Of a stretch of 64,000 nucleotides of DNA, positions 39,582 to 47,937 are shown piece by piece. Both the position numbers and the translations under genes were made by a program. Under the pieces are notes generated by a model. That model was not told where the DNA came from and searched no databases. It saw only the letters and a program-made list of their open reading frames with translations. Position 1 is the stretch's first letter; each line of letters opens with the position of its first letter. Source of the DNA: Armatimonadota bacterium (GTDB lineage Bacteria > Armatimonadota > HRBIN16); the NCBI GenBank assembly GCA_963677485.1, contig OY781964.1, forward strand, positions 1,024,001 through 1,088,000, in the 5' to 3' direction.

Positions 39582-40616
39582 CTAGCGGCGGCTCCGATCA
39601 TGAACGAAATCCACCAGGCTGGTCAGCACGTCTGGGTCCGTAGAAGGCATGATGCCGTGCCCGAGGTTGAAGATGTGACCGGGTAACTCAGAGGCTTCGT
39701 CCAGCACGATCTGTGCCTGCTGCAGGCAGACATCCGTTCCCGCCAACAGCGCGGTGGGGTCGAGGTTGCCTTGCAGCGCGAACTCTGGGCCCAACTGCTG
39801 ATGCGCCTGAGAGAGCGGTATCCGCCAGTCCACGCCCAGCACATCCGCGCCGATCTCGCGCAGGCAGGGATATAGGTGCGAGGCCCCCACGGCGAAATAG
39901 ATTACCGGCACACCGGTTTGCTTCAAGCACTTCACGATTCGCTGCAGCCAGGGTAGAGCGTGTTGCCGGTAAGTGGCTACGCTGAGCGCACCTGCCCAAC
40001 TGTCAAACAACTGAACCGCGGAGGCACCTGCTTTGATCTGCGCCAGCAAGCAACTGCAGATGCTCCGCTCGAGGTAGTCCATCAGCGTAGCCCATAACTC
40101 AGGATCGGCTTGTATCATCGTGCGAGTTTTCGCATAGTCGCGGCTAGACTTGCCCTCTATCATGTAACTCGCCATGGTGAACGGTGCCCCGCAGAAGCCG
40201 ATGAGCGGAACCTCCAACTGCTTAGTGAGCCGCTGGACACTCTCGGTGACAAACGGCAGTGCCTGCTCTGCTTCGAACGGGATCAACCGCTCCACGTCCG
40301 TGCGGTTGGAGATCGGCTGAGTAATGACCGGCCCCACGCCCTCTTTGAACTCAAATTCCACACCTATCGCCAGATAAGGAACCGTGAGGTCGCTGAACAG
40401 AATGGCTGCGTCCATGTCAAACCGGCGGACCGGCATCAGCGTAATCTCAGTCGCCAGCTCGGGGGTGGTGCAGCATTCTACCATCGTGTGGCCCTTGCGC
40501 AGCTCGCGATACTCCGGCAGGAAGCGGCCCGCCTGGCGCATCACCCAGATAGGGGTGCAGTCCACGGGCTGTTTTCGGCAGGCATTCAAGAAGCGTTCTC
40601 GGACAGGGGCCATCAA
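39582..40616 (-). CDS. hemE: Uroporphyrinogen decarboxylase
   Basis: WVMRQAGRFLPEY, AAILFSD, GAPFT, QLFDSW, QGNLDP, FNLGHG. Confidence 0.96.
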   Translation of the reverse strand: MMAPVRERFLNACRKQPVDCTPIWVMRQAGRFLPEYRELRKGHTMVECCTTPELATEITLMPVRRFDMDAAILFSDLTVPYLAIGVEFEFKEGVGPVITQPISNRTDVERLIPFEAEQALPFVTESVQRLTKQLEVPLIGFCGAPFTMASYMIEGKSSRDYAKTRTMIQADPELWATLMDYLERSICSCLLAQIKAGASAVQLFDSWAGALSVATYRQHALPWLQRIVKCLKQTGVPVIYFAVGASHLYPCLREIGADVLGVDWRIPLSQAHQQLGPEFALQGNLDPTALLAGTDVCLQQAQIVLDEASELPGHIFNLGHGIMPSTDPDVLTSLVDFVHDRSRR

Positions 40617-41899
40617 GCTACCGCCTCTTGAAGTGAGATTCGGAAGGCCTCGATCGTCTTCTGTATGTCATCTGGGGTGTGCGCAGCGCTCACGAACCAG
40701 GATTCCAACGCCGATGGCGGTAGATACACTCCCCGATCAAGCATCCCGTTGAACAGTTTGGCGAATAGTTCGCGGTTGGTGCTCATCGCGCTGTCGGTGT
40801 CGGTGACCGGATTTGGGGTGAAGAAGCAACAAAGCATCGCACCGACCCGGTTGAGCTGCATCGGCACGTTGAGTTCCGCTGCGGCCGCCTTCAGCCCCAC
40901 CTCCAGCATCTGGCAGTTGGCTTCCAGTTGGATATAAAGCTCGGGGGTCAGCAGATTCAACGTGGCCAATCCCGCGGCCATGCCCAGCGGATTTCCTGAG
41001 AGTGTGCCAGCCTGGTAGACCGCGCCGAGTGGTGCTATGTTTTGCATCAAGTCGCGACGACCGCCGTAAGCAGCCACGGGCAGTCCCCCACCCACGATCT
41101 TACCAAGGCAGACGATGTCCGGGGTCACGCCGGTGAGCTCCGTAGCACCGCCTCGCGCCACGCGGAAGCAGTTCATCACTTCGTCAAAAATCAACAGGGC
41201 GCCATATTGTGTACACAGACGGCGCAAGCCCTCAAGGAAGCCAGATGCCGGTGGCACCACGCCCATGTTACCTGCGATGGGCTCCACGATGACTCCCGCA
41301 CTCTGTGCGCCGTGCTTCATGAAGAGCTGCTCCACCTCATACAGGTGGTTGTATCCGGCAAGCAGCGTATTCGCGGTCATCTCAGGCGGTATGCCCGCGC
41401 ATTCCGGCAGGCTGAAGGTGGCGACCCCGCTGCCGGCTTTCGCCAGAAGACTATCCACATGGCCGTGATAACAGCCCTCGAATTTTATGATGTAGGGACG
41501 GTTGGTGGCTCCACGGGCCAGACGCACCGCACTCATCGTGGCCTCCGTGCCGGAGCAGACAAAGCGCATCATTTCAATGTGGGGCATCATCTCTGTGATC
41601 TTCTGCGCCAGCAACAACTCGCCTTCATGAGGTGCGCCGAAGCTCATCGCCTTCTTCGCCATCTCCGTGACAGCCTCAACAACCGCGGGGTGACTATGGC
41701 CCAAAATCATCGGCCCCCAGCTCCCCACATAATCGATATAGCGGTTGCCGTCCACATCGGTGAGGGTGGCACCCGATGCGCTTTCGAACACCACTGGGTC
41801 ACCGCCCACGGCTCGGAACGCGCGCACGGGGCTGTTGACCCCTGCGGGCATGAGCTGCTGAGCGAGTTGGTTGATTACAGTTGATCGGCTGTGATCCAT
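40613..41899 (-). CDS. hemL: Glutamate-1-semialdehyde 2,1-aminomutase
   Basis: GVNSPVRAF, DYVGSWGP, SGTEATM, GKIVGGGLP, YQAGTLSGNP. Confidence 0.97.
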   Translation of the reverse strand: MDHSRSTVINQLAQQLMPAGVNSPVRAFRAVGGDPVVFESASGATLTDVDGNRYIDYVGSWGPMILGHSHPAVVEAVTEMAKKAMSFGAPHEGELLLAQKITEMMPHIEMMRFVCSGTEATMSAVRLARGATNRPYIIKFEGCYHGHVDSLLAKAGSGVATFSLPECAGIPPEMTANTLLAGYNHLYEVEQLFMKHGAQSAGVIVEPIAGNMGVVPPASGFLEGLRRLCTQYGALLIFDEVMNCFRVARGGATELTGVTPDIVCLGKIVGGGLPVAAYGGRRDLMQNIAPLGAVYQAGTLSGNPLGMAAGLATLNLLTPELYIQLEANCQMLEVGLKAAAAELNVPMQLNRVGAMLCCFFTPNPVTDTDSAMSTNRELFAKLFNGMLDRGVYLPPSALESWFVSAAHTPDDIQKTIEAFRISLQEAVA

Positions 41900-41992
41900 G
41901 TGGCCTCCAGCGGTTTGACGCTTGTGGTGATGTTTATACCTATCTGTATTCTACCGCTTTTGGCTGTGACGGCGTTTTAACGCTGGTCTGTA

Positions 41993-42290
41993 CTCACGCG
42001 AAGACGCGAATGGGAAGACTTCATCCACAGATGACGCAGATGGCACAGATTAGGCGGTTGGATGCGCGAGGATTCGGTATGGTAGCGATCCTAATTGGCT
42101 ATGTCCGGGGCGGTCTTTCAGTACGCTGGCGATGACAGAAGGCTATAGACCGCGCCGGTCTGGTTCGAAGGCGGGTGGCTATCGGCACGAAGGATTAAGG
42201 GATTCATTTCTGAACCACGAATGAACACGAAGGAACACGAATGGAGAGGATGCATCCACAGATTACGCAGATGGCACAGATTAGGCGGTT
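41993..42290. repeat. Mosaic repeat cluster next to the IS110 insertion
   Basis: TCACGCGAAGACGCGAA; ATCCACAGAT.ACGCAGATGGCACAGATTAGGCGGTT twice; family B (42093-42161); TCTGAACCACGAATGAACACGAAGGAACACGAAT. Confidence 0.88.
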
Positions 42291-42596
42291 AACGACACGG
42301 GTTTGTCTGCAGATATCCAGCGTAGATACTGTGGCTTTTGTCAAGTCCCCAGGGGCAAATCTGGGGATTTGGACCTGAATATCAGACACTGGCTCTAGAC
42401 CACGTAGAATAACGTTAATGTGATGTTTGTGGCATATAGACCAAACCTGGATCCGCGTCAGAAACAGGCTCAGATGGCATCAGTTGGTCCGTAGCACCTC
42501 ACATGACGCTCGGAGTCGCGAACGGACGTGCGACATCTTCGTGGCTTCGAAAGATATCGTTATGCTTCGATGCGTGCTATCGGCAGACTGCCGCAG

Positions 42597-43889
42597 CTAG
42601 GATACTGGTGTCAGAACCCTCGGTTTGTTGCCCACCCGACTGCGCGATGGCCGGTTTCGGGATGCGGGCCGACCACCGCCGGCAGGAGTGGGCTCATTGG
42701 TGGGATTTCCATCCACGCATCCCCGTCTTGGAACGCTCACGTCCAGCCCAGGATCATTGCCTACACCGGCTATATCATGGGCCGCTCCGGCACGATCCTG
42801 GACATGTCCGTTCGCGTCGGTCAGCGGTTGCTGGTTGGCCGCATTTGAAGCTTGTTCGATGCCGAAGTTTGGATCATATGGCTGACGGCTGATTAATACC
42901 GACCACATGAGCACCAGCTGCTTGCGCATGATTGCGCACCGGACAACTCGCTTGGACTTCGGTTTCTTATTGGGATTCTTTACCAAATTCGGATGCTGCA
43001 GTTCCTTCACGAAGTCGTGCATGCTCTGGCCAAGCTTTTTCGACTTACCGTTGACCATCTTCACCACAGTGCTCGATCCACAGTAGAGTAATGTCCGCAT
43101 ATATCGGTCACCCATCTTGGATATGGAGCCGTCGTATGTCTTGCAGCTTCCTGACCGTTGCGGGCAGGGGTTCATTCCGAAATAGCGCGCGACCGCTTTC
43201 GATGTTTCAAATCGTTTAGCATCACCGATTTTCGCAAGGAAATAGCTTGCTGTGACGTCGCCGATACCCGGAATGCTCTTCAGCAGAGCCATATCTTCGG
43301 TCATCTGCGGTGAACTCATCACAAGCTCTTTGATCTGAACATCAAGCTTTTTGATGCCCATGTCATGAAAAGCGATCATCTCGTCCAGCACTGTGCTCCG
43401 CGTAAGCCGACAGCTTTGGCGCTGGGCGATCGCCTGTCTGTGTTGCACCAGCATACGGCGGTCATTGGTGTAACCAATAAGCGCATCATAGCATGCTAGA
43501 CGAGGGACATAGAGTGAGACATTGTGACTTTTCACATAGTCAGCGATTAGCACGCTGTCAGAGCAGTCCGTCTTTTGTTCCCAGCCTTTGGCTTTGCGGT
43601 GATAGAGAACCCGTTTTGGCTCCAGTTGGACAGCATCGTGCTGGTGCTCGTAGAGGTAATCAAGCAGCGGTCGGCTGTAAGGCCCGGTGGCTTCAGCCGC
43701 ATACAAGGCGGGAGTTCGGGTAAGCTTCTTCACCCATGACAACAACTCCTTGTATCCGGCCTTGTTGTTCTTGAACTCCTTATGGTCTATCGGCTTGTGC
43801 GATGAACCTAATACAGACGCGTCAAACGTCAATTTCGAGATGTCGATCCCGACATAATGGATGTAGATTTTGTCTTCAACTTCGTGCAT
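42597..43889 (-). CDS. IS110-family DEDD transposase / bridge recombinase
   Basis: VGIDISK, EATGPY, KTDCSD (DEDD), SIPGIG, PQRSG (catalytic Ser), ISKMGD..MRTLLY, AIMRK; ATG 43889 after GGAG. Confidence 0.95.
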   Translation of the reverse strand: MHEVEDKIYIHYVGIDISKLTFDASVLGSSHKPIDHKEFKNNKAGYKELLSWVKKLTRTPALYAAEATGPYSRPLLDYLYEHQHDAVQLEPKRVLYHRKAKGWEQKTDCSDSVLIADYVKSHNVSLYVPRLACYDALIGYTNDRRMLVQHRQAIAQRQSCRLTRSTVLDEMIAFHDMGIKKLDVQIKELVMSSPQMTEDMALLKSIPGIGDVTASYFLAKIGDAKRFETSKAVARYFGMNPCPQRSGSCKTYDGSISKMGDRYMRTLLYCGSSTVVKMVNGKSKKLGQSMHDFVKELQHPNLVKNPNKKPKSKRVVRCAIMRKQLVLMWSVLISRQPYDPNFGIEQASNAANQQPLTDANGHVQDRAGAAHDIAGVGNDPGLDVSVPRRGCVDGNPTNEPTPAGGGRPASRNRPSRSRVGNKPRVLTPVS

Positions 43890-43924
43890 GTGGTAATCTC
43901 CAGTTGGTAGTGATTGATGGTGCA

Positions 43925-44120
43925 ATCAACCAAATCAGCCTAGCGAACACGGGGTTTTCTCCCAAGATACTGTTCGATATGGGTTGATTGGGAGAAGGAT
44001 GCCTATCTACGTCACGGTGTTTTCCACCAGGGGCGGTTCCGGCATCCAATCCTTCTCCTTCACCCCCAGCTAAGGGGTGAGATTAGCTCCCCGACTGCTT
44101 TTGGTGTCCGGGGAGCTCAC
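43925..44120 (-). ncRNA. Predicted IS110 bridge RNA
   Basis: 5' hairpins, then target loop ACCGCCCCT (44037-44029) / GACGTAG (44013-44007) and donor loop ACAGTATCT (43973-43965) / CTAG (43943-43940), which match the element's own target and ends. Transcript ends are approximate. Confidence 0.85.
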
Positions 44121-44276
44121 CATATATAGCGTACTAGGGGCGATTCGCGAATCGCCCTTCTAGCGTCGGTGGTGTGCTGTGTATCTACGAATAGACACGA
44201 ACGTCGGAACGTAAAAGGCATCTGCTGCCTCCGGTATTCGGACCTCAACACGTTCACGTGAATTGTAAATGCCATC

Positions 44277-46070
44277 CTACCTGCCCGCATCCTTCAACAA
44301 CCCGTATTTCGCGGCAGGAACCATGATCGAACGGTCATACAGTTTCATGGCTTCCCTATCGGCCGGTGATACCACCTCGGTGGGTGAGAACAACAGCGTG
44401 TCCCGTGACCACGCCGCGGCGTCTTTTGCGGTGAACAGAGGGTAGGCCACGAAGCTCAGCGTCAGCCAGAGCACTGCCATCGACACAGCCAGTCCGCGAG
44501 TCCATTCGAACAACCACTCCTTGCGGGCCAACGGTTTGGTTGCAAGAAGCAACACCACTGCGATTGCCAGAGCAAACAGAGCGGAGTAGCACGCCAGACC
44601 ACCCAATGCCAGCAACACCACCAACAGACCCACGAACACCATGAAGTGAGGTCGTTTGGTCAGCGCGCCCATCCTGCGAGACAGCCACCAGACAGGCAGT
44701 ATCAGGCAAAGAACGGTCGTAACCGCCAGTTGCACCACAAACGACATTTGCGCCACACCTGGGCCGTACTGCCGCGACATCAAGCTGGGCACGAGCAGCA
44801 GCAGACCATATACCGCCCATGGCATCAAAGCCAAAGCCGCCGCAATACTCAAATCCTTACGCGAATACTGCCATTCAGAGCCTGCCAGAAACGCACAGCA
44901 CAGCAGCAATACCACCAGTATACCGCCTACGAAGACACTGAGTGTGTTGGCCACTACCCGTTCGAATACCGCTTGCTCCGCTGTGCGTAAGGGTTCGATG
45001 TTTTTAAGGGTAATGTTCGCATTTCGGTCCAGGCAGATGGCACTCAACACGCTGCCGTGCTGTGAGATGATGTTGTCACTCTCAGAATTGTCATGTGGCT
45101 TGTTCATCTTCTTGACTTCTTGAACATAACCACTGTAACGCTGAGCTCTAGTTGCGTCACCAGCGATTTTAGCTACCTCTGCGGTGGCATTAGCCAGCAT
45201 TGATATACAGGCTTTGTATAACATCACATCGATCACAGCATATAGCTTACCCTGTTTGAACTTGAATATCGGCTGTTGCCAACGTCGTGACATCTGGTCG
45301 GCCTGCTTCACCTGACCATTCCGCGCCAGGTAGACCATCATGGCACCATAGTTTCTTGCGAACGTCCTTTGATAGGACAGCATTGGATGCAGACTTTCGG
45401 AACTCACCTCAATTCGGGCCAACTGGTGTTCCGTGAGATATGGCGGTTTGATGTTGCGCATACGGTGGCGTTCATATTCGGTGGTGTAGTCCGACAATAT
45501 CGGCGATGAGAGCGCCTTCTGCGCGTAAGCTAGTGCTTGGGGCAGTGCCGTCGGACGGGTAATGGTAATGCCCGACCAGGTTTTCGTCTTGATTTTATCG
45601 GTGTCCAAGCCTGCTTCACGGAACGCCTCGTTGGCCAGCATCATAGGGTAGAGCGCGTTGGCGGGATCATCTGCCATATATGTGGTCAGCAGCGCAATCC
45701 GCGGTTGGGGTTCCTTCGGCAGCCTATATAGAAATCGCGCGTGCGTCCAGTTCCGCAGCTCAATCGGTTTGTTTCGGGAATCGCGCAGCAGCTTATCAGG
45801 TGAGCGGTCAGCCTCCAGGGAGAAGGCTACATCACGCCAGTTCTGATCTGTCACTAACAGTCCGGAGAGAACTGGTGGGATTTTGACTCCGAAGCCAAAA
45901 CTCGAATCGTCGTCGTGAACGTAAAACTGTCTGTACCACTCCATCACGCCCATCAGCGGGACCCCACGATGGCCAAGCCATGCATTCGTGGCCAGCACCA
46001 GCACGGCGGCCAACAACGGCCACCAGCGGATTCGGCGGGATGGTTTTGATGCTACGATGGTGTCTGACAT
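44277..46070 (-). CDS. Hypothetical membrane protein (paralog 1)
   Basis: N-terminal TM, large helical domain, C-terminal TM bundle; shares motifs with the next gene. Confidence 0.75.
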   Translation of the reverse strand: MSDTIVASKPSRRIRWWPLLAAVLVLATNAWLGHRGVPLMGVMEWYRQFYVHDDDSSFGFGVKIPPVLSGLLVTDQNWRDVAFSLEADRSPDKLLRDSRNKPIELRNWTHARFLYRLPKEPQPRIALLTTYMADDPANALYPMMLANEAFREAGLDTDKIKTKTWSGITITRPTALPQALAYAQKALSSPILSDYTTEYERHRMRNIKPPYLTEHQLARIEVSSESLHPMLSYQRTFARNYGAMMVYLARNGQVKQADQMSRRWQQPIFKFKQGKLYAVIDVMLYKACISMLANATAEVAKIAGDATRAQRYSGYVQEVKKMNKPHDNSESDNIISQHGSVLSAICLDRNANITLKNIEPLRTAEQAVFERVVANTLSVFVGGILVVLLLCCAFLAGSEWQYSRKDLSIAAALALMPWAVYGLLLLVPSLMSRQYGPGVAQMSFVVQLAVTTVLCLILPVWWLSRRMGALTKRPHFMVFVGLLVVLLALGGLACYSALFALAIAVVLLLATKPLARKEWLFEWTRGLAVSMAVLWLTLSFVAYPLFTAKDAAAWSRDTLLFSPTEVVSPADREAMKLYDRSIMVPAAKYGLLKDAGR

Positions 46071-47874: not shown

Positions 47875-47937
47875 CCTTCGCGTCTTCGCGTGAGACCGTT
47901 CCGAACAATAGAAGGGCGATTCGCGAATCGCCCCTAC
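47875..47937. repeat. 8-mer tandem repeat plus intact REP-like palindrome
   Basis: CCCTTCGCGTCTTCGCGTGAGAC; AGGGCGATTCGCGAATCGCCCCTAC. Confidence 0.85.

Follow-up and report, generated by a model that had tools for sequence, protein, structure and literature searches.

An IS110-family insertion sequence with readable guides, a probable IS621-type bridge-recombination system, in an Armatimonadota bacterium

Introduction

Does an insertion sequence in the genome of an Armatimonadota bacterium find its insertion sites through a guide RNA of its own, and can the guides be read from the DNA? The question is raised by a stretch of 64,000 nucleotides (GenBank assembly GCA_963677485.1, contig OY781964.1, positions 1,024,001 to 1,088,000), hereafter the window, in which an IS110-family element occupies positions 42324-44137 of the minus strand. 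A preliminary description made from the letters alone had claimed here a complete bridge-recombination system laid out like IS621 of Escherichia coli, whose mechanism was described in 2024 together with thousands of natural IS110 orthologues (PMC11208160). The analysis reported here supports that claim: with a probability of roughly 0.88, the element belongs to the IS110 subgroup as an autonomous insertion sequence with recent activity and would work as an IS621-type bridge-recombination system. Coordinates are window positions and features lie on the minus strand unless stated otherwise.

Extent and copies of the element

The outline of the element is set by the following features.

42324-44137, minus: whole IS110-family insertion sequence, 1,814 bp including the CT core at each end; ends common to 12 genomic copies
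44136-44137, minus: left CT core, at the junction of the left target and right donor half-sites; CT stands before AGTACGC in 12/12 copies
42324-42325, minus: right CT core, joining the left donor half-site to the right target; ACAGTAT-CT terminates the element in 12/12 copies
42322-42323, minus: right target half-site AC, in the flank outside the element; AC follows CT in 11/12 copies, AT in 1/12

When the genome that holds the window (5.22 Mb in one contig) was searched at the DNA level, 12 full-length places turned up at 99-100% identity. Anchored on their inner ends, these are 12 copies that each start with CT-AGTACGC and finish with ACAGTAT-CT, with unrelated sequence outside. The boundaries 44137 and 42324 proposed in the preliminary description, which had named an alignment of genomic copies as a check, are thereby borne out. 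CT stands at both junctions in all 12 copies and the flanks fit one 11-bp motif, as expected of the core and the site-specific insertion of the IS110 family.

The 12-copy alignment (1,814 columns) contains only six single-base variant columns and one 16-bp deletion, and its first 248 nt are invariant. The frameshifting deletion, at the equivalent of window positions 43451-43436, is common to two copies of 1,798 bp; the other ten measure 1,814 bp. A full open frame is present in 10/12 copies, in keeping with the earlier claim of an intact natural ortholog. The window copy is one with a full frame; a single base change is private to it and lies at 42458, within the right non-coding end. The two deletion copies lie at different loci, G000:C1:1369194 (+) and 1872956 (-), both at perfect target sites, and one of them also has a base change in common with an intact copy. 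A deletion shared by two loci suggests that a defective copy was moved by the enzyme in trans, or else gene conversion.

Such defective copies could be taken as a sign that the whole set consists of relics of a system that is now dead, multiplied by duplication or by gene conversion, and the activity of the element is deduced from its sequence. This is extremely unlikely, however, given the ten full frames and the six variant columns. Moreover, the copies sit at separate loci, each with target half-sites exactly at its borders, which is the mark of site-specific insertion and not of segmental duplication, and the deletion itself, found at two loci, implies movement in trans or conversion.

The recombinase and its relatives

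Two coding features are needed here.

42597-43889, minus: recombinase gene, 430 amino acids plus stop, with GGAG 7 nt before the ATG; identified by Pfam and PDB matches
42597-42866, minus: coding region of a clade-specific C-terminal extension, about residues 342-430; 17 invariant columns, low predicted confidence (predicted local distance difference test, pLDDT)

The start methionine encoded at 43889 is shared by the close relatives P0001-P0003. The protein matches PF01548, the DEDD, RuvC-like N-terminal domain (E 1.8e-21; 77 bits, cut-off 29), and PF02371, the C-terminal Tnp domain (E 4.4e-22; 78.7 bits, cut-off 21.3). Its sole relatives in the PDB are the transposases of IS621 (8wt6, E 2.5e-28, query residues 10-274) and ISCro4 (9t56, E 5e-26). 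Counted along the printed alignment, with the PDB chain numbering running 2 ahead of the native numbering, residues D16, E66, D108, D111 and S246 face the identical D11, E60, D102, D105 and S241 of IS621, which are named as its catalytic residues (PMC11208158).

Beyond these domains lies a tail that is conserved across the seven clusters of relatives described below, with 17 invariant columns between N352 and G406 in an alignment of eight sequences and with the motif VQ.RA.AA...AG.GN ... C..G. Pfam gave no match to the tail alone below E 0.1. An AlphaFold2 model from the shallow, eight-row alignment has a mean pLDDT of 59.9, and residues 342-430 fall below 50; the tail is thus predicted to be disordered.

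Relatives of this protein are few. At E up to 1e-20 it was found in 5 of 41 genomes searched, the own genome counted: a genome of the same genus (G001) has nine places at 42% identity, and the own genome holds a second element at 45%. In a collection of 5.8 billion proteins, 52 of 6,778 candidates pass E 1e-20. Seven of these (P0001-P0007) are 41-95% identical and 400-433 amino acids long, so that the clade amounts to seven 90%-identity clusters; the other 45, with lengths of 272-375 amino acids, are 25-32% identical and span 55-80% of the query. No protein beyond the seven close clusters exceeds 32% identity. A single-protein search of genome contigs found no relative, and a repeat with the protein alignment returned distant IS110 loci and a group of relatives, here called B-type, but none of the close relatives P0001-P0005 (61-95% identical).

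The B-type elements (L014, L032, L051 and L052, including those of the own genome and of G001) encode recombinases 42-45% identical to this one, with the same conserved tail motif. Their protein ends about 25 residues earlier. Over window positions 42597-42640, the DNA downstream of the earlier stop in L032 still aligns with the last coding stretch of the present gene. The final, Arg-rich piece of the tail looks like former 3' non-coding sequence that may have been drawn into frame.

A predicted structured RNA in the left end

In the IS110 subgroup the guide RNA lies upstream of the recombinase gene, and in the IS1111 subgroup downstream. The long non-coding end of this element, 248 nt, lies upstream. 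It resolves into the following parts.

44137-43890, minus: left end, 248 nt, running from the left core up to the start codon; candidate guide-RNA region
43927-44121, minus: putative bridge RNA, about 195 nt; presumed 5' end from the junction promoter, presumed 3' end at the base of the donor-binding stem
44085-44117, minus: 5' stem-loop 1, from the minimum-free-energy fold; four compensatory pairs relative to B-type
44060-44080, minus: 5' stem-loop 2, from the minimum-free-energy fold
43991-44058, minus: target-binding loop module (outer stem, internal loop, terminal hairpin); helices 1-3
43927-43986, minus: donor-binding loop module; helices 4-6

Folding of the 248-nt left end gave z = -3.8, with none of 200 shuffles equally stable, and two internal-loop modules appeared, which answers the folding check that had been proposed earlier. 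In the target-binding module GGATGCC (44047-44041) has GGCATCC (44003-43997) as its partner, and the donor-loop hairpin is 13 nt (43963-43951).

In an alignment of five sequences, this element's and those of B-type relatives, the 27 proposed pairs of the two modules are standard in 135 of 135 cells, and seven pairs are altered on both sides. The target-binding module contributes 17 pairs, four of them compensatory, and the donor-binding module 10 pairs with three, every cell being paired in both. The compensatory pairs of 5' stem-loop 1 occupy alignment columns 17/59, 23/53, 27/49 and 29/47. None of 500 shuffles equalled the 27-pair structure in these respects, and slid controls were 38-44% paired.

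A covariance model made from the five-RNA alignment was run on 98 of the 104 distant IS110 loci. It matched eight at E up to 1 and six below 1e-3 (L060, L073, L101, L098, L099, L061); these six matches lie on the strand of the gene, end 2-38 nt before the protein match, and accompany recombinases only 22-27% identical. The remaining 90 of the 98 gave no match, as is expected of so narrow a model. In the own genome the model found 14 places, namely the 12 copies and two B-type copies, with zero orphan RNAs, and in the window one place only, the left end; the 271-nt right end gave no match.

Guides and handshake bases

The loops were interpreted against the published IS621 scheme (PMC11208160, PMC11208158). 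The elements of the guide code are as follows.

44029-44037, minus: left target guide ACCGCCCCU (as DNA ACCGCCCCT), in the same sense as left flank plus core
44007-44010, minus: right target guide GUAG, complementary to CTAC, which is present in 11/12 copies; preceded by a hairpin, a GU linker and GAC
44005-44006, minus: target-loop handshake guide AU, the complement of AT at donor positions 6-7 but not of CC at target positions 6-7
43965-43973, minus: left donor guide ACAGUAUC(U), as DNA ACAGTATCT, 9/9 identical to the right end, 42332-42324
43940-43948, minus: right donor guide GUUCGCUAG, discontiguous, after a hairpin and a second GU linker; pairs with the left end CTAGTAC (44137-44131)
43938-43939, minus: donor-loop handshake guide GC; G pairs with target position 7 (C), and the second base is unpaired with position 6 (C)

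The strings quoted in the preliminary description, GGATGCC, GGCATCC, ACCGCCCCT, GACGTAG (44013-44007) with AT (44006-44005), ACAGTATCT and CTAG (43943-43940), were all found on the minus strand where it had placed them. Across the 12 copies the left target guide agrees with left flank plus core at 9/9 in six, 8/9 in five and 6/9 in one. The window copy, with ATCGCCC+CT (44144-44136), is one of the 8/9 cases, so that the figure first reported was true of this copy and understated the fit to the consensus target. The right flank of the window copy starts ACGCT, and CTACGTC, the reverse complement of the right target guide with its preceding GAC, matches CTACG, again as had been described. Extension of this guide by GAC (44013-44011) was considered and rejected: it needs GTC at target positions 12-14, and position 12 is G in only 4/12 copies. 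As deduced from guides and flanks, the natural target is the 11-mer ACCGCCC-CT-AC.

The left donor guide matches the right end as first stated. For the right donor guide the earlier reading stood in part: CTAG is present, but it is only the end of a 9-nt guide that pairs all seven left-end bases. The nine RNA bases are arranged as G:C14, U:A13, two looped-out bases (U, C), G.T12, C:G11, U:A10, A:T9 and G:C8, with one G.T among the seven pairs. The same economy is described for IS621, where nine RNA nucleotides pair with seven donor bases (PMC11208160) through A157-U158, flipped U159-U160, G161.T12 and C162-G165 (PMC11208158). Mononucleotide shuffles of the 248-nt left end contained the right-end 9-mer in 18 and the target 9-mer in 17 of 20,000 trials, and both in none.

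According to the account of IS621, a handshake guide fits the non-cognate and not the cognate DNA at position 7 (PMC11208158). The first handshake base is A in the target loop and G in the donor loop in 5/5 elements compared, this one and its relatives, and all of them have T at donor position 7 and C at target position 7.

Covariation of guides and targets among relatives

The same code was read in the B-type relatives. Their ends were examined in G001 (seven copies), in L051 and L052 and in the own genome's L014. All finish ACAGTAT-CT and start CT-TGTATGC. Each has AUAUACAAG or AUUUACAAG as its right donor guide, which forms 7/7 pairs with CTTGTAT, and the register of the looped-out bases is the same. 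Between this element and B-type there are changes at donor position 10 (T to A) and donor position 14 (T to C), and the guides change with them (A to U and A to G) in a way that restores pairing.

Target guides vary as well. The left target guides are GUCAUCCCU in G001, GUGGCCCCU in L051, CGUGCCCCU in L052 and CGCGCCCCU in the own genome's second element, and the corresponding flanks are GTCATCCCT (in six of the seven G001 copies; GCCATCCCT in the seventh), GTTGCCCCT, CATGCCCCT and CGCGCCCCT. When five guides are compared with five flanks, the own-flank scores are 9, 9, 8, 8 and 9 of 9, and the cross scores 4-8. The single tie is that of the L052 guide, which scores as well against the target labelled ISB as against its own flank; the mismatch in that guide is a G opposite a bottom-strand T, and the same wobble is reported for G53 of IS621 (PMC11208158).

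The B-type elements share with this element an alignable RNA scaffold, the left donor half-site ACAGTAT-CT and the position of a TTGACA hexamer, whereas they differ in left target guides and targets and in the right donor half-site, TGTAT, which equals the IS621 positions as published (PMC11208158). A right flank of CTACG is found in 9/10 B-type copies examined, against 4/12 copies of this element. The second element of the own genome is itself present twice, at G000:C1:1296594-1298400 (L014) and G000:C1:2667700-2671719 (L013). Its bridge RNA bears the guide CGCGCCCCU; one copy stands at a 9/9 site and the other at a 7/9 site, and in the second copy the protein match is split into two distant pieces.

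These observations also bear on another account of the left end, namely that it is a structured 5' leader controlling expression of the transposase, and that its matches to flanks and ends are remnants of end definition. The region does lie directly upstream of the gene and would sit in its mRNA, and for another IS110 member, ISPpu9, it has been proposed that expression of the recombinase is modulated by small RNAs (PMC11208160). A leader, however, has no need of 9-mers identical to a flanking target that varies from element to element together with the RNA, nor would it reproduce the discontiguous nine-for-seven pairing or the handshake positions of IS621. It is accordingly a most improbable explanation, and the guide-RNA reading is retained.

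Target sites and their occupancy

The sites chosen by the element lie in a repeated sequence, as seen at its own left flank.

44138-44157, minus: flanking 20-bp palindrome GGGCGATTCGCGAATCGCCC, outside the element; the left target half-site is made up of its final 7 bases, 44144-44138

Ten of the 12 copies adjoin the 3' end of a palindrome from a single family (GGGCG.TTC.CGAA.CGCCC), and the other two follow other hairpin-forming sequences. The family gives 78 strand-hits in the genome, each palindrome being counted on both strands, and the window copy occupies its ATCGCCC variant. The insertions fall between genes because the preferred site is the 3' arm of this repeated extragenic palindrome.

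Such a distribution could arise if the recombinase selected its site mainly through the DNA hairpin of the palindrome, with the identity of RNA and flank a by-product or a minor factor. All 12 insertions follow palindromic or hairpin-forming sequence, and all five related elements insert after palindromes. In ISPpu10, disruption of the left-flank hairpin with guide pairing kept is reported to lower efficiency from 55.8% to 24.4% (preprint 10.64898/2026.03.19.712850). Within the single palindrome family, however, sites that match the guide exactly are far more often occupied. Of nine sites with the exact 11-mer, six are occupied and three empty (6/9); at sites that vary at position 2, four are occupied and 29 empty (4/33; Fisher p = 0.0025 against exact sites). 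One of these four has CTAT, and without it the figure is 3/32. With any base allowed at position 2 there are 32 unoccupied sites, the three exact ones included, about 21 of which belong to the palindrome family as judged by eye. Furthermore, five elements with different guides each stand at a different matching sequence, and the ISPpu10 preprint itself names sequence complementarity as the primary determinant. Selection mainly by hairpin is therefore very unlikely; the hairpin may well raise efficiency, which is compatible with guide-directed choice.

An unoccupied one-mismatch site, ATCGCCCCTAC, is found within the window 3.8 kb from the element, at 47927-47937 (+), where it ends another palindrome of this family.

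A putative promoter across the circle junction

Excision of IS621 is described as rebuilding a promoter across the core (PMC11208160). When the right and left ends of the present element were joined in silico with one copy of the core and scanned for sigma-70-like sites, one site was found, TTGACA-17-TACGCT, a sequence match of 9/12 bases with a weak -10. Its two halves and the end that holds the first are listed below.

42339-42344, minus: -35 hexamer TTGACA, located in the right end 13 nt ahead of the core; from the junction scan
44128-44133, minus: -10-like hexamer TACGCT, the left-end half of the putative junction promoter; from the junction scan
42326-42596, minus: right non-coding end of 271 nt; contains blocks that are also conserved in B-type relatives; from an alignment of five right ends

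No sigma-70-like site was found at the integrated left junction at the same threshold, and a promoter and terminator scan of the integrated copy found nothing on the element's strand. The promoter would thus form only in the circle junction. In B-type elements TTGACA likewise stands 13 nt before the core, and TATGCT follows two bases after it. Their right ends share hairpin-forming blocks with this one, and the block CTTGACAAA, which holds the -35 region, is invariant across all five.

Four metatranscriptome runs from four studies were searched at 90% likeness; the contigs come from relatives and are incapable of showing transcription of this element. Contigs at 95-98% identity cover the left-end RNA region in 4/4 runs (X1 43770-44159, X3 43961-44160, X5 43918-44093, X7 43930-44136; 4-21 differences), which is a weak hint only. 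Within the gene, the differences of the X1 contig fall almost all at three-base steps, as expected of a coding region under selection. X5, a single contig of low depth, shows two changes in the target-loop hairpin without a compensating change.

Two further observations come from X7. Over window positions 43930-44139, a short contig joins the start of this element's left end to the type of palindrome targeted by the G001 element. Another left-end contig has U at target guide position 2. Further guide variants possibly exist in nature.

Proposed mechanism and its standing

The bridge-recombination reading would entail the following course of events. The element would leave its site as a circle, in which TTGACA of the right end and TACGCT of the left end come to lie 17 nt apart and would make up a promoter that the integrated copy lacks. 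Transcription starting there would produce the RNA of about 195 nt and probably also read the recombinase gene behind it. The RNA would fold into two 5' hairpins and two internal-loop modules and be bound by the recombinase. In the target-binding loop, GUAG would pair with the top strand CTAC, and the two target guides would jointly specify the 11-bp ACCGCCC-CT-AC; in the donor-binding loop, ACAGUAUC would pair with the right end, and GUUCGCUAG would loop out two of its bases and pair with CTAGTAC of the left end. The handshake bases, A44006 and G43939, fit position 7 of the partner DNA and not of their own, which would favour strand exchange, and a tetramer of the 430-residue enzyme would swap strands at the CT core.

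Several points weigh on the other side. The GAC extension of the right target guide is unreflected in the flanks, and the second handshake base fits in only 1/5 elements for the target loop and 0/5 for the donor loop. Guide matching is not absolute, as one copy stands at 6/9 identity and one has CTAT. The occupancy test was post hoc, and its sites are kin within one repeat family, which makes it supportive and not decisive. The 27-pair structure was derived from the same five sequences on which it was scored, four of them close kin, so the covariation appears to stem from about two lineages. In the junction promoter the -10 hexamer is weak, 3/6 to TATAAT, and the RNA runs may contain DNA. Finally, an Rfam 15 scan of 41900-44400 at E up to 10 returned only snR39 and GadY, at E 9.2 and 9.8, which is noise. 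Against these stands the general agreement with IS621: every defining feature of an IS621-type bridge system that can be tested at the sequence level appears to be present.

Comparison with known bridge systems

The closest characterized system is IS621 (PMC11208160, PMC11208158; PDB 8wt6); its positions were taken from the text of these papers. The likeness extends from the enzyme to the site. The two Pfam domains are common to both, their DEDD and Ser residues align, and in both the RNA lies in the left end, with the target-binding loop followed by the donor-binding loop. As IS621 is described, the two share a 9-nt left target guide, GUAG reading CTAC, a CT core and an 11-bp natural target ending CT-AC. 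The target-loop handshake AU equals wild-type A81/U82 of IS621, and the first base of the donor-loop handshake, G, equals G166. The right donor guide spends nine bases on seven with G.T at donor position 12, and both elements have A, T, C, T at donor positions 6-9. IS621 also inserts into extragenic palindromes (PMC11208160) and uses a promoter across the circle junction, a feature represented here by a sequence match only. The IS621 bridge-RNA layout put forward in the preliminary description, with two guide loops, a CT core, guides matching flanks and ends, and a DEDD and Ser recombinase, agrees with these findings and is extended by the handshake positions.

The differences are equally clear. 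The PDB matches are significant but distant and cover residues 10-277 at most, and the IS621 protein is given as 326 amino acids against 430 here, a difference owed to the extra C-terminal tail. The natural target of IS621 is ATCAGGCCT, ATCAGGC-CT-AC (PMC11208160), against the left target guide ACCGCCCCU and ACCGCCC-CT-AC here, as the claim of an own target specificity would have it. Its right donor half-site reads T, G, T, A, T at positions 10-14 (PMC11208158), against AGTAC. The donor-loop hairpin of IS621 is 22 nt (nucleotides 133-154) against 13 nt, and two 5' hairpins precede the loops of the present RNA, while IS621's target-binding loop is reported to start at nucleotide 34 (PMC11208158). 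The linker after the handshake guide is 4 nt in IS621 and 1 nt here.

Two other systems are relevant. IS622, or ISCro4, of Citrobacter rodentium (PDB 9t56) is the second-best PDB match (E 5e-26) and has the architecture of IS621; its protein, of 326 residues, is described as 88% identical to that of IS621 (10.1101/2025.05.14.653916). It is as far from the present protein as IS621 is, is without the C-terminal tail and is reported to be active in human cells. In ISPpu10 of Pseudomonas putida, also an IS110 element, a repeated intergenic sequence forms a hairpin whose 3' arm is the left target half-site, as here, and a junction promoter is used in that work (preprint 10.64898/2026.03.19.712850). 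Its bridge RNA is reported without a 5' stem-loop, against two in this element, and the likeness is one of description only.

The tail and the short hairpin invite a bolder reading, put forward tentatively: that the conserved, disordered tail and the reduced donor-loop hairpin alter the assembly or regulation of the synaptic complex, that the element belongs to a separate small clade of bridge recombinases, and that two such systems coexist in this genome. The donor-loop hairpin of IS621 contacts RuvC.1 (PMC11208158), and the tail might, for example, replace that contact or recruit a host factor. Taken as a whole this reading is unlikely, though not far-fetched. The two systems have orthogonal target guides and a shared left donor half-site, and on this reading half-matched cross-reactions between them could occur.

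Genomic neighbourhood

The element lies between two genes on its own strand and interrupts neither.

40613-41899, minus: open frame of 428 amino acids that looks by eye like glutamate-1-semialdehyde aminomutase, presumably HemL
44277-46070, minus: open frame of 597 amino acids with long hydrophobic stretches

A separate short repeat family occupies the right flank, between the presumed hemL and the element. Two copies, 88% alike, lie at 42004-42059 and 42235-42290 (+), with a further stretch at 42206-42285, and three tandem 10-mers CACGAA.G.A are found at 42216-42245. A genome search with the right-flank stretch gave dozens of partial matches at 77-97% identity.

Implications

For biology at large this is an expected finding of low surprise, as IS110 elements with bridge RNAs are common and catalogued; its practical value is moderate. 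The element adds a natural orthologue far from IS621 in protein to a family under development as a genome-writing tool, and is, by fair inference, a candidate programmable recombinase, as the preliminary description had suggested. Its ends, target, four guides and handshake bases are all readable from the sequence. That exact-match sites are mostly filled and one-mismatch sites mostly empty is field evidence for guide-directed choice together with tolerance at position 2. The same genome also contains a related second element whose target guide differs, which provides a ready orthogonal pair.

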